Source: Candidatus Micrarchaeota archaeon
Lineage (GTDB): Archaea; Micrarchaeota; Micrarchaeia; Anstonellales; Bilamarchaeaceae
Assembly (NCBI GenBank): GCA_043821365.1
Contig: JBDRCX010000006.1
Span: 320,001-384,000, forward strand
Reading direction: 5' to 3'
Length of the DNA stretch: 64,000 nt
Each line of letters begins with the position of its first letter. The stretch's first letter is position 1. Made by a program: the position numbers and the translations under genes. Under the pieces are notes generated by a model. The model saw only the letters and a list, made by a program, of their open reading frames with translations. It searched no databases and was not told the origin of the DNA. Below are positions 1,293-62,255 of this stretch, one piece after another.

Positions 1293-1317
1293 GTGCTTGA
1301 AACTGCGGTTTCAAGAT
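1293..1317. repeat. CTTGAA...TTCAAG hairpin module (copy in tRNA-Phe trailer)
   Basis: CTTGAAAC-TGCG-GTTTCAAG; the 8-bp stem is identical to 48832-48850 and shares its base with 7243-7264. Confidence 0.8.
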
Positions 1318-1335
1318 AGGCAATTTTGATAAATA

Positions 1336-1357
1336 GGGGTGCGGGGATGTGCCCCGC
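1336..1357. repeat. REP-like GGGGT-footed GC hairpin
   Basis: GGGGT-GCGGGG-ATGTG-CCCCGC; same layout as 19910-19937. Confidence 0.55.
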
Positions 1358-1369
1358 AACAAAAAGAAA

Positions 1370-1590
1370 TGCCACGGGCCTGATTTGAACAAGCGACCCC
1401 ACCGTTTCCAAACTTTTTGAAAACATCATTGTTGCAAAACAACAATGCGCCCATAAAAACGATAGTTCGTTTTTATAGGGAAGTTTGACCGAACTGGGAT
1501 TCCAGTTAAGATACTTCAGCTTCACAGATTCTTTTAGTTAAAAAATTCCTAAAAGAAACAGGTGTGCTCTCCCAACTGAGCTACCGTGGC
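1370..1590 (-). tRNA. tRNA-Phe(GAA) with two introns: 30/31 (1560-1521, 40 nt) and 37/38 (1513-1406, 108 nt)
   Basis: Exons 1590-1561, 1520-1514 and 1405-1370 join to a 73-nt cloverleaf GCCACGG...CACCG-CTGAAGA-CGGTG...TTCAAAT...CCGTGGC-A. Intron 1 has a clean BHB central helix (CACA/UGUG, bulges CC|U and AA|G). Confidence 0.93.
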
Positions 1591-1607
1591 ATTTAGTATT
1601 TTAGTTG

Positions 1608-2243
1608 TTAACGGAAAGATTCTAAAATAGTATTTATTCTCCTCCTTTTATGTGGATTTGAGGATCCTATGTCATTATTCCATTTAGCTAGCATCTTCAT
1701 TCCATATATGGAGATTTTATAACTACCATTTCCTGCATGTCTATAATTTATTCGAAATCCCATCTCAATCAATGTTTTGTATACCTGTATTAACAATGTT
1801 TGATTCGAATTTGTTATCTCCAGTGTGGGGTAGCTCTCGATGCCTTTTTTATGTGATGTAAACACAGACCCATCAGTGTCGAATAAACCCCTAATGAAAG
1901 CTTTTAGTAGTTTTTTAGTGACACTTATTCTTGGCGGGATTCCAAATTTACACTTTAATGTTCTAGGTGGTATCCCTATTTTATTTGTGATAAACTGGTA
2001 AAATTTTTTAGAATATATAGTTAATCGCAATCCCCTACTCCTCACCCTATAATATGGTTTTTTTATTCTGGAATGAACAAAGAAGTAGATATAGTCAAAA
2101 TATTCTCTATCTGTTATGATGTTCCCGGTTAATGTTATCTCGTATTTTCTTCCATTAGACCATATATTCCCGTCTCCCATCACTGCCCCACAAAATTCTG
2201 AAATCATTTCATCAATAAAATAATCTTCCATAGTATTTCTCAT
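1608..2243 (-). CDS. Free-standing two-motif LAGLIDADG homing-endonuclease-like protein
   Basis: Motifs FCGAVMGDGNI and FIRGLFDTDGSV; stop codon lies 18 nt upstream of tRNA-Phe on the same strand. Confidence 0.92.
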   Translation of the reverse strand: MRNTMEDYFIDEMISEFCGAVMGDGNIWSNGRKYEITLTGNIITDREYFDYIYFFVHSRIKKPYYRVRSRGLRLTIYSKKFYQFITNKIGIPPRTLKCKFGIPPRISVTKKLLKAFIRGLFDTDGSVFTSHKKGIESYPTLEITNSNQTLLIQVYKTLIEMGFRINYRHAGNGSYKISIYGMKMLAKWNNDIGSSNPHKRRRINTILESFR

Positions 2244-2487
2244 TTGCTATTCTTTATCTCTATGATCCTGTTTTTGATGTGCCTGCCCATCAAAAATACT
2301 ATTTTAAATGTTATTTACCATATATTTCCATTACAGACAAGTAAAAAAAGATTTCATTTAGCCTTTGATAGGTTTATGAAGTCTTTCAACCCCAGTAAAT
2401 TTTTTCAGTTTAGCTGTTATTGAGGTTTTCTACCACAAATATTCCAAAGTAGTCAGAGGTAAATAAGGGGATGGTAGGTTCATCCCT

Positions 2488-60291: not shown

Positions 60292-60295
60292 CTTA

Positions 60296-61042
60296 TCATC
60301 TCTTTGCAAGTTCATCTGCTAAATCAGAAGCACAAAAATTAAATCCAAATTTTTTCTTTAATCTTTTCCCTGCCTGTCCATTCATACAAGCCCCAACAAA
60401 AGCAGAGTTCAAAGCAGGATTTTTACAAAACAAAGCAGCAATCAGACCAGCAAGAACATCACCGGTGCCCCCTTTTGTCATACCTTGATTGTGCACTTTA
60501 TTCACCATTGTTCTTTTACCATCAGAAACAATATCTCCTGCTGGATCCTTTTTGATTATCACCACACCATAGCTATCTGCCATCTTTTGCACATTCTTTT
60601 TTGTGCCTTTACACTCAAAAAGTGCGGTAAATTCTTTTTCATGTGGTGTTAGTATTGTTGAGCCTGGTTTCAGTTGACAGAGTTTTCCTTTAATGAGTCT
60701 AAGTCCATCTCCATCTATAACAAGCCGTTTACTATTTTTTATTAGGTAATCAACATCTACCTTTGCATTTGCAAGTCCAATACCAAAAAGAACACAATCA
60801 CATTTTTTGACAATGTTAAGATCATAAACAAACATGGCTTCAGGTATTGTTTTGATGGCGTTAATCAAATAAGGATCCTTTTCACCAGGGTAAAAATAAA
60901 GTAAATCCACAAAACGTCTTGCAGCTAAAATGGAAAACATTGGAGCTCCTTGATATTCTTTGCTTCCACCAACTATCAAAAGTTTCCCATTCTGTCCTTT
61001 ATGAGAATATTTTGGCGGAACATATGATTTCATGGCTGCCAT
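60296..61042 (-). CDS. nnrD: NAD(P)H-hydrate dehydratase (YjeF C-terminal)
   Basis: SHKGQNGKLLIVGGS, VIDGDG, LTPHEKEF and TKGGTGDVLAG motifs. Confidence 0.93.
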   Translation of the reverse strand: MAAMKSYVPPKYSHKGQNGKLLIVGGSKEYQGAPMFSILAARRFVDLLYFYPGEKDPYLINAIKTIPEAMFVYDLNIVKKCDCVLFGIGLANAKVDVDYLIKNSKRLVIDGDGLRLIKGKLCQLKPGSTILTPHEKEFTALFECKGTKKNVQKMADSYGVVIIKKDPAGDIVSDGKRTMVNKVHNQGMTKGGTGDVLAGLIAALFCKNPALNSAFVGACMNGQAGKRLKKKFGFNFCASDLADELAKR

Positions 61043-61083
61043 ACTTTCTATGGAACGCTGGATAATTAAAATCATGCGTGTAA

Positions 61084-61887
61084 TCAGAAATTATACTTCC
61101 TGATCTTTTTGTTAATTGTTTCAGCTTCTCTAAGTGCAGCTTCTGCAGCTCCTCCCCCTTTTTCAAATGCATATGCTATTGATGATGATGCATTTATTCT
61201 GTGTATTGGTAAATAGTCTTTTATTGCATTCAAAACCATATCAAGGTCTCCACCCTGTGCACCGATTCCAGGAATTAAGAATGGCACCTTTCCATTTGTT
61301 TTTTTAGCAAGAACCCGTATTGAATCAGAAGTTGCACCTACGACAGCACCACATCCCCATTCAACTGCTTTTTCCATTACTTTTTCATATACTCTTGCCT
61401 TTCCTTCACATCTAAGTTCTTGGAAATCATTTGCTCCTGCGTTTGATGTTTTACAAAGTACATAGGCTAATTTTCCTTCTCGTAAAAATGGCAAAACAGA
61501 ATCCGAACCCATATACGGACTTACAGTAACTGCATCAGCACCCCAGAAATCATATGCTTCTTTTGCATATGCTTCACTTGATTTTCCAATATCTCCTCTT
61601 TTAACATCTAAAATGATTGGAATTTTATTTTTGTAGTTTGACATAAGAGTTTGTAGGGCTCCCAGTCCATCAAATCCATATTGTGCAAAATAAGCATAGT
61701 TTGGTTTTATTGCTGCAATTGCATTCTCATCTATCAACTTATCTAGTATATCAGAAAAAAAGTGTTCTATTGCTACTTTTGTTGGGAATGCAGGTAACGA
61801 AACCATGATTCTTTGTAAATCAGGGTCAATACCAAAACAAAGAACAGTCTTATTTTCTTTTGCAAATTGAATTAATTTCTCTCGCAT
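61084..61887 (-). CDS. pyrF: Orotidine-5'-phosphate decarboxylase
   Basis: LCFGIDP, IKPN, ILDVKRGDIGKS, TVSPYMG and LIPGIGAQGG motifs. Confidence 0.95.
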   Translation of the reverse strand: MREKLIQFAKENKTVLCFGIDPDLQRIMVSLPAFPTKVAIEHFFSDILDKLIDENAIAAIKPNYAYFAQYGFDGLGALQTLMSNYKNKIPIILDVKRGDIGKSSEAYAKEAYDFWGADAVTVSPYMGSDSVLPFLREGKLAYVLCKTSNAGANDFQELRCEGKARVYEKVMEKAVEWGCGAVVGATSDSIRVLAKKTNGKVPFLIPGIGAQGGDLDMVLNAIKDYLPIHRINASSSIAYAFEKGGGAAEAALREAETINKKIRKYNF

Positions 61888-62021
61888 AATTATCTATACA
61901 ATCTGCTGTTTAAATTGGTTTTGTCTATTTTGCTTTTTTCACAGCACCATTAAGCAAATAATATAAAGTGGTTCTATCTAGTAATACTACTCTCAGCTAT
62001 AGTTGTCTGAGTATGTTATTT

Positions 62022-62197
62022 GGGGTCGTGGCGTAAGGCGTGCACGCAATCCGGTAGCGCGGCTGGCTCCAGATCTCTCTTGCAAATGCAAGAATTTTGA
62101 GCCGCGAAATCAGCATGTTAGAGTTCAACAAACTTTTTTAGTAAAAGAGTTGACAAAAAACTAGCTAAAAAAGTGCGAAAAGATCTCTACGACCCCA
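62022..62197 (+). tRNA. tRNA-Trp(CCA) with three introns: 15/16 (62037-62049, 13 nt), 37/38 (62073-62108, 36 nt) and 58/59 (62129-62182, 54 nt)
   Basis: Spliced product GGGGTCG-TG-GCGT-AATCCGGTA-GCGC-G-GCTGG-CTCCAGA-TCAGC-ATGT-TAGAG-TTCAAAT-CTCTA-CGACCCC-A. D-loop intron has BHB GCGU/ACGC; anticodon intron boundary may shift by 1 nt. Confidence 0.88.
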
Positions 62198-62255
62198 TTT
62201 TGCTCTTGTAAAATGCGGAACCATTGAATCAAATTCATTATGGCCCCATTTTGCT
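62193..62255 (+). repeat. Duplicated tRNA-Trp 3' end/trailer enclosing a two-hairpin insert
   Basis: CCCCATTTTGCT at 62193-62204 and 62244-62255 (51 nt apart). Confidence 0.8.

Follow-up and report, generated by a model that had tools for sequence, protein, structure and literature searches.

How does a small double hairpin that recurs beside tRNA genes and inside protein genes come to occupy unrelated sites of one archaeal genome, and do all the hairpins found there belong together? The question is raised by a 64,000-nucleotide stretch of a Candidatus Micrarchaeota genome (the window, G000:C6:320001-384000), for which an earlier sequence-only reading had proposed a single, window-wide system of hairpin cassettes in tRNA leaders, introns and trailers and in mRNA. 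The source genome, G000, comprises 1.2 Mb in six contigs (36% G+C, 87% complete), and the DNA runs that contain it derive from groundwater and biofilm metagenomes. We find that at least three things had been merged: a dispersed element, here termed R1 (the cassettes at 6178 and 54203, both tRNA leaders and, probably, a hairpin at 1296), the tRNA introns, and duplications of tRNA 3' ends are distinct, and a single system is not supported. [quoted passage not shown]

Two copies on the plus strand of the window define the element:

6178-6234, plus strand: R1 in the DUF460 gene (5906-6400), a 51-nt in-frame insert (17 codons), 69.5 bits
54203-54278, plus strand: R1 at the start of the winged helix-turn-helix (wHTH) membrane-protein gene 54275-54754, 72 nt, with a long hairpin-2 loop, 73.6 bits

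R1 consists of hairpin 1, a linker and hairpin 2, is usually 51-54 nt long and has (C)CATGG-like borders on both sides. The consensus runs from (C)CATGGC through hairpin 1 (CAAGAAnn...nnTTCTTG), ACTGTC and hairpin 2 (GCGAAC... or TTGAAC...) to an end in TCCATGGC or GGAC/AACAAGG, and tags at the feet of the two stems (ATGGC before hairpin 1, GACTGTC before hairpin 2) are near-invariant over 64 copies. At 6178 a CATGGC direct repeat (6178/6229, 51 nt apart) encloses hairpin 1, GACTGTC, hairpin 2 and TCCATGGC; at 54203 it is ATG(A/G) that is repeated (54203/54275, 72 nt apart) around two hairpins. Both cassettes share GACTGTCGCGAA...TTCGCTCCATGG with three further G000 copies. The features named in the sequence-only reading, with repeat layouts at spacings of 51, 72, 59 and 51 nt, all lie where it had placed them; its statement that cassettes occur within protein genes holds for 6178, inside open reading frame (ORF) 5906-6400, and not for 54203, which is outside the gene, on the start codon of 54275-54754.

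Across G000, GACTGTCGCGAA occurs five times and TTCGCGAAAATTC twice, both above chance, CTTGAA-N(3-14)-TTCAAG has 23 matches versus 1-3 in shuffles, and a strict hairpin-CTGTC-hairpin search yielded 13 matches versus one in shuffled sequence. Looser hairpin-linker-hairpin scans were discarded because shuffled sequence matched equally often, and a search for repeats over the entire window gave nothing beyond low-complexity noise. A covariance model trained on the five strong G000 copies brings the total in this genome to about 15 with some ten diverged copies, and was applied to 24 further genomes of the genus (congeners) and to 16 genomes of the order's other families. It finds R1 in 10 of the 24 congeners, with 0-16 copies per genome, and no copies in the 16 genomes from other families; following retrieval of flanks, 64 non-overlapping copies are recognised in 11 of the 25 genomes of the genus, G000 included. 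Within the genomes searched R1 is thus restricted to one genus. Tandem and truncated copies are common, as at G000:C6:72451-72567 (minus strand), where about 2.4 tandem units with a 54-nt period occupy the 3' end of a 247-aa ORF whose stop codon falls within the hairpin loop of the first unit. Over 75 aligned R1 matches, 97.2% of the cells are paired and double-sided changes are present in 15 of 15 pairs and in both helices, giving a covariation score of 0.70, versus 0.19 for shuffled alignments and about 0.06 when partners are slid. G-U pairs, counted from the per-pair table, occupy about 2% of cells, a rarity that is expected of a DNA palindrome.

Comparison with congeners identifies the corresponding empty sites. 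The DUF460 host corresponds to Pfam PF04312 with about 15 extra residues, and its site is empty in G015 (92% identity), G024 and G043. The copy at 54203 abuts the start codon exactly, and the terminal ATG of the element now serves as start codon of ORF 54275-54754, which matches Pfam wHTH families; in G015, G012 and G019 the same start is uninterrupted (CACCTC followed directly by ATGGAG), and in G024 it is filled. LeuRS of G000 carries 54 additional nt (18 codons) that are absent from all 23 congeners aligned, and LipA of G000 carries 54 nt relative to G024. The metallophosphoesterase gene is longer by 57 nt in G000 and by 45 nt in G024; G015 is without the insert, and most of the approximately 26 other congener matches are about 702 nt long, leaving no room for it. 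The repeats that flank the inserts are as short as 3 nt (TCC, at LipA) and as long as 13 nt (phosphoesterase). Since close relatives have the corresponding sites empty, the copies at the wHTH start and in LeuRS, DUF460, LipA and the metallophosphoesterase are insertions. The proposal of a spreading family of micro-elements has therefore held up: in place of a lack of other copies, inserts kept in all relatives and a lack of covariation, the genomes provide further copies, empty orthologous loci and strong covariation.

Open frames hold 21 of the 64 copies (13 sense, 8 antisense). Eleven copies lie in genes confirmed by Pfam or by a long ORF, five of them in G000 or G024 and the others in G015, G010, G019 and G022:

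G000: LeuRS (C6:614668-614722), LipA (C2:152105-152160), DUF460 and phosphoesterase (C6:296664-296726)
G015: MetRS, a 729-aa frame with two copies (L017:1083-1142 and 1501-1563) in opposite orientations, open at both
G015: OTCase, antisense copy
G010: CysRS, on the N-terminal side
G019: protease
G024: phosphoesterase
G022: 633-aa ORF

None of the 11 breaks the host frame or brings in a stop, and both orientations and each of the three frames are represented; among the copies outside ORFs, frames are open in 53% and the length is a multiple of three in 42%. Three G000 copies are read in frames that all differ (LSRT, TVAN and DCRE). An explicit excision scan, in which each element was deleted with variable borders, identified no gene that is whole only after removal, and the flags it raised were a LeuRS artefact together with spurious or marginal frames. 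Our conclusion is that selection keeps the ORF copies translatable; most likely they are not spliced, or not reliably so. In an AlphaFold model of the phosphoesterase the confident fold is kept (pTM 0.84), with the insert predicted as a low-confidence excursion at residues 107-121, and from model and sequence together we infer that R1 inserts are probably translated as part of the host protein.

The LeuRS artefact merits description, as stops and a frame change in the element had indicated that this mRNA must be spliced. That candidate was rejected, since all four sequencing runs have one A fewer: at G000:C6:614659-614662 (L005:2660) the assembly has AAAA, versus AAA in contigs of one RNA and three DNA runs. 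The extra A lies in an A-run 9 nt upstream of the LeuRS element and splits LeuRS into ORFs of 792 and 187 aa; with this one-base assembly error corrected, LeuRS reads straight through R1. No RNA run was listed for window positions 5000-9000. Metatranscriptome X9 includes a small share of the LeuRS locus, in which a single 159-nt contig, possibly from DNA carry-over, extends from the exon 25 nt into R1 and ends in adapter.

These observations bear directly on the possibility that R1 copies are enzyme-spliced mini-introns or processing modules. Here CAUG would pair with CAUG to give a relaxed bulge-helix-bulge (BHB) motif its central helix of 4 bp, a permissive, three-unit ARMAN-type splicing endonuclease (EndA) would cut 2 nt further on, and RtcB would rejoin the mRNA, shortened by exactly one repeat unit; the same module would also set the points at which tRNA leaders and trailers are cut. 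Cutting at CATG+2 at both 6178 borders does remove exactly 51 nt and obeys the rule seen at the tRNA-Leu(CAG) intron described below (central 4 bp, then two nucleotides before the cut), excision at 54203 would restore the ancestral promoter-proximal/start-codon junction, and the hairpin-linker-hairpin layout resembles that of the real tRNA introns of G000. The genome also encodes a 407-aa ORF (C6:408632-409123) with two tRNA-intron-endonuclease (EndA) domains and a 171-aa paralog, consistent with the multi-unit ARMAN-type EndA of PMC3239211. Nonetheless we regard this explanation as quite improbable. The ORF copies, 11 of 11, have lengths divisible by three and no stop in the host frame, with three frames and both orientations in use; a spliced intron has no need of this, and no gene requires the excision. 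The 6178 borders can pair through CAUG/CAUG, with cuts predicted 2 nt downstream, but no inner or outer helix flanks that pairing, whilst in LeuRS the 5' tetramer is CUUG rather than CAUG and gives a U-U mismatch; no clean BHB can be drawn for the ORF copies, and the scarcity of G-U pairs also tells against splicing. A facultative version, in which R1 copies are mobile mini-introns known to the Micrarchaeota EndA by CAUG...CAUG pairing and bracketing hairpins, harmless if retained and removable if cut, so that each gene would have two isoforms and the same module would set tRNA leader and trailer cleavage points, is very doubtful. Of the mechanisms left side by side in the sequence-only reading, a DNA-level, MITE/REP-like one fits in-frame and stop-free copies in both orientations that need no excision and offer no clean BHB, and spread by RNA splicing and reverse splicing appears disfavoured. 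A search of the 87%-complete G000 for a reverse transcriptase, by which R1 might spread through RNA, found none.

R1-type sequence also stands before tRNA genes of the window and, probably, behind one; the leaders and trailers are these:

7178-7294: leader of tRNA-Leu(CAG), four hairpins abutting the tRNA 5' end, which read as a tandem pair of R1-type units in minus-strand orientation
48781-48881: leader of tRNA-Ser(GCU), homologous to the leader at 7178-7294
1293-1368, minus strand: trailer of tRNA-Phe, with a T-run and two hairpins, one GC-rich (1338-1356) and the other (1296-1315) a solitary CTTGAA...TTCAAG hairpin of R1 hairpin-2 type
49095-49153, plus strand: trailer of tRNA-Ser(GCU), with a copy of the 5' acceptor/T-stem strand, a hairpin, a second tRNA 3' end (CCTCCCCGGCG) and a T-run
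62198-62255, plus strand: trailer of tRNA-Trp, two hairpins between CCCCATTTTGCT direct repeats

The R1 model matches both leaders on the minus strand, at 7235-7297 (24-26 bits) and 48781-48831 (19.9 bits), in agreement with the earlier suggestion that leader and mRNA cassettes form one family. These two leaders and a third, before tRNA-Leu(UAG) on contig C3, align over about 115 nt with stems and junctions kept and loops varying; together with the motif counts above shuffles, this substantiates the description of hairpins with conserved stems and variable loops at unlinked sites. The Leu(CAG) leader of G015 is only 32 nt long with one hairpin, and the Ser(GCU) leader cassette is missing from G024 and represented in G015 by a diverged, related one. 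G000 has a candidate RNase P RNA (C6:111852-112172), archaeal and full-length at 37.5 bits against an Rfam cut-off of 84; with this candidate present, there is no need to postulate RNase-P-free 5' maturation. The lone hairpin at 1296 probably belongs to the R1 family. Beside it, a module of a T-run with GCGGGGCACATCCCCGC and ACCCCTAT stands behind tRNA-Phe in G000 (1338-1356) and behind tRNA-Ser in G024 (L077), and looks like a terminator-like unit common to different tRNAs.

The Ser and Trp trailers are of another kind. After tRNA-Ser, CCTCCCCGGCG is repeated at 49084/49143, 59 nt apart, and the fold of the trailer duplicates the acceptor/T-stem minihelix, a layout kept in G000, G015 and G024 (L077/L078) with an inner-hairpin sequence that differs in each; such a minihelix could, from its predicted fold, be a substrate of RNase P, RNase Z or the CCA-adding enzyme. 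After tRNA-Trp, CCCCATTTTGCT is repeated at 62193/62244, 51 nt apart, with a diverged equivalent carrying a GACCCCAT repeat in G024 and none in G019. The R1 model has no match in the 3'-end duplications at 49083 and 62193, which, with a layout kept in G015 and/or G024, are older structures and not recent R1 insertions. A true R1 copy is found behind another tRNA, at C2:125967, in a position like that of the Ser and Trp trailers and with a 7-nt repeat. The idea that leader and trailer form a BHB from which whole tRNAs are excised was set aside, as inspection by eye of the Leu(CAG) and Ser loci revealed no complementary tetramers.

Another explanation holds that the hairpin pairs are modules recruited by the host and maintained by selection, as terminators, 3' stabilisers, guides for RNase P/Z or EndA or protein binding sites, with the ORF copies being accidents. 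Consistent with this are the leader conserved in three tRNAs, ending exactly at +1, the Ser trailer minihelix conserved in three species despite differing inner hairpins, the many intergenic R1 copies that lie 13-36 nt downstream of stop codons, the near-invariant GACTGTC over 64 copies, and the retention of hairpins within coding sequence in G000 and G024. We nevertheless judge it unlikely, because R1 is patchy within the genus (from none to 16 copies in a genome), orthologous sites in sister species are empty, copies lie within aminoacyl-tRNA synthetase genes in both orientations, and tandem and truncated copies exist, all of which are hallmarks of selfish spread rather than of a required signal.

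The tRNA genes themselves, re-typed by use of intron-poor orthologs, are as follows:

1369-1591, minus strand: tRNA-Phe(GAA), introns at 30/31 and 37/38 with a 7-nt micro-exon (GCTGAAG) between them
7295-7430, plus strand: tRNA-Leu(CAG), a single 52-nt D-loop intron (7317-7368)
32786-32923, plus strand: tRNA-Leu(UAA), a canonically placed intron about 55 nt long
48882-49094, plus strand: tRNA-Ser(GCU), class II, a 130-nt intron at 37/38 (48920-49049) with nested hairpin modules
62022-62197, plus strand: tRNA-Trp(CCA), a 12-nt D-loop insert, an anticodon-loop intron and a T-loop intron

ARAGORN and Rfam at default settings detected none and one of these genes, respectively; with introns allowed ARAGORN detected four and mislabelled three of them (Ser(GCU) as Pro, Leu(CAG) as Thr and Phe as Ser). 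After re-typing, introns are seen in all five genes, as had been claimed, with one to three in each at canonical and non-canonical positions. The borders of the Leu(CAG) intron were fixed by the intron-free D-arm of the G015 ortholog; its removal restores a canonical tRNA, and the BHB core at its borders is good (GGTC AA/T ... GACC AT/A, a stroke marking each border, with inner helix CCGC/GCGG). In G015 the Leu(CAG) D-arm is uninterrupted and introns occur at 37/38 and in the T-loop, the former sharing a two-hairpin module with the D-loop intron of G000. For tRNA-Phe, G024 has the 37/38 intron only and G015 has both. The Ser(GCU) ortholog of G024 is intronless, and the introns of G000 and G015 differ by nested module insertions, one of 59 nt flanked by CCAAAAAC repeats; the 37/38 borders of this gene give only a relaxed form of BHB, with hairpins beside each splice site. 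The Trp D-loop insert (62037-62048) is palindromic, comprises a direct and an inverted copy of the adjacent GGCGT and is absent in G024, and no BHB could be drawn for these 12 nt.

The window introns are genuine EndA-type introns built of non-R1 hairpin modules that shift position between species, a phenomenon separate from R1. Disrupted tRNA genes and intron transposition are known, and are found here with an undescribed set of modules. Transposition of introns between tRNAs is reportedly a feature of Thermoproteales, as Fujishima is said to have described in 2010. The Micrarchaeota introns are similar in that related modules occupy different positions in the orthologous tRNAs of congeners. 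The disrupted tRNA genes of ARMAN-2, with its epsilon2 EndA (PMC3239211), offer a likeness for the window introns only, in the multi-position introns and the multi-unit EndA; R1 copies in ORFs differ in showing no need of splicing. EndA is known to act on mRNA in the case of the cbf5 pre-mRNA, which has a BHB intron in Crenarchaeota (PMC2738675), but the cbf5 intron breaks the frame and must be removed, whereas R1 copies never do so.

How R1 reaches its sites is suggested by two of the inserted genes. At the phosphoesterase site, conserved coding sequence (GNHDGGIE) itself makes up the 5' arm of hairpin 1, and within the LipA copy are 13 nt that match phosphoesterase host sequence exactly and that the LipA host does not have, which indicates that they were copied from elsewhere. 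From these two facts, microhomology-guided copying between sites, for instance by template switching, may be proposed, and template switching would in addition account for tandem copies and near-perfect palindromes. An account without mobility, in which each site arises by local replication slippage and template switching as an inverted plus a direct copy of neighbouring sequence, can draw on the same phosphoesterase arm, on the variable repeat lengths, and on 49083, 62193 and the 12-nt Trp insert, where the first arm is the neighbouring host sequence and the insert contains that sequence reverse-complemented and, after it, directly copied. It may be right for the two trailer duplications. For R1 it is highly improbable, given a core (GACTGTC, hairpin 2 and TCCATGG) that is common to 64 copies at unrelated loci in 11 genomes, and given the foreign 13 nt in LipA. 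A stricter rule, that hairpin 1 is always templated by its target, was also abandoned: it is true at the phosphoesterase and arguable at DUF460, it fails at the wHTH gene and LipA, and the family has its own consensus (CAAGAA/TTCTTG).

An enzyme that might move R1 was sought in the Y1 transposase (Y1_Tnp, IS200/IS605-type, PF01797), for which G000 has a single gene (C3:96659-97006, 157-aa ORF). It is flanked by GAGAATACTGC on both sides, has different end hairpins, and has TTGAAC-type hairpins near its left end. PF01797 is found only in G000, G007 and G018 (two of the 24 congeners) and is absent from the high-copy genomes G012, G015 and G024, and the Y1 transposase was accordingly rejected as mobiliser because it does not co-occur with R1 across the genus. 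No parent insertion sequence (IS) element for R1 was found.

The statement in the sequence-only reading that no described class matches these elements was too strong, since RPEs and REP/REPIN sequences are close analogues. RPEs (Ogata et al. 2000, reviewed in PMC10969869) are bacterial elements of about 100-150 bp, short palindromic repeats of a reduced genome, inserted in frame and free of stops in unrelated housekeeping genes including aminoacyl-tRNA synthetases, found also in or near RNA genes and in intergenic DNA, and having no known transposase. By comparison, R1 is smaller (51-54 nt) and archaeal, has two separate hairpins around an invariant linker, a CCATGG-like border and frequent tandems; a relation in sequence is not expected. 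REP/REPIN-RAYT systems, with their GTAG/CGTC-tagged palindromes (PMC3733652), resemble R1 in having 20-40-nt hairpins that bear a short conserved tag where the stem begins, commonly form pairs, are located behind genes and covary, and G000 does have one Y1 transposase gene; REPs are extragenic, however, R1 occurs also in ORFs, and Y1 does not co-occur with it. Archaeal MITEs and the IS200/IS605-derived PATEs of Sulfolobus and Haloquadratum, listed in PMC10969869, are likewise small, non-autonomous, multi-copy and variably present among relatives, and R1 resembles IS200/IS605 elements in its subterminal hairpins, in insertion beside a specific short sequence and in a similar sequence at the far end; R1 is far smaller, has neither terminal inverted repeats nor a parent IS, and has variable flanking repeats. 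R1 is best described as belonging to the REP/MITE/RPE kind, of which it is a new variant, found in Micrarchaeota, with two hairpins and a very small size; the multi-intron tRNA genes beside it evolve fast and are of a kind already known.

On the reading that we prefer, R1 would be a genus-restricted, non-autonomous palindromic DNA micro-element, copies of which would arise at the DNA level at ATGG/CCATGG-like sites, frequently in tandem. To judge from the borders, insertion would take place beside such a sequence, the element bringing a similar one at its far end; we would guess at microhomology-guided copy-choice or a hairpin-recognising enzyme as the means. Copies would persist where harm is slight. 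Behind stop codons or between genes they may serve as 3' hairpins, in tRNA leaders, trailers and introns they would be removed by normal tRNA processing, and in protein genes they would survive only as a multiple of three with no stop in the host frame, to be translated as a loop of about 17-18 residues. Perfect hairpins may be kept by selection on single-stranded DNA or RNA structure, or by palindrome-correcting template switching.

Several observations weigh against this interpretation. The filled phosphoesterase and wHTH sites are common to G000 and the more distant G024 and are not shared by the closer G015, a distribution that needs either re-insertion at hot spots or precise loss. R1 is without terminal inverted repeats spanning the unit, having two independent hairpins instead, the repeats flanking it are anything from 3 to 13 nt long, where a classical transposase would leave a target duplication of fixed length, and no mobilising enzyme was identified. 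That the hairpins are kept even within coding sequence is a hint that they are not simply neutral junk and that a function, or a mechanism of correction, is involved. Finally, the alignment scored for covariation had been fitted to the R1 model, and the genomes compared are metagenome-assembled ones of 75-94% completeness.

Selfish palindromes that enter essential genes without breaking the reading frame are known from textbooks as a peculiarity of Rickettsia. An analogous, smaller family in a DPANN archaeon would show the same solution to have evolved independently in another reduced genome, and R1 offers a tractable case for movement without a recognisable transposase and for distinguishing selection from template-switch correction in the hairpins of coding sequences. 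There are practical consequences also, in that R1 repeats and multi-intron tRNAs mislead gene callers and tRNA finders, and an assembly error beside an R1 element mimicked an mRNA intron. Were facultative splicing of mRNAs by EndA to prove true after all, the archaeal splicing endonuclease would have a considerably wider role.

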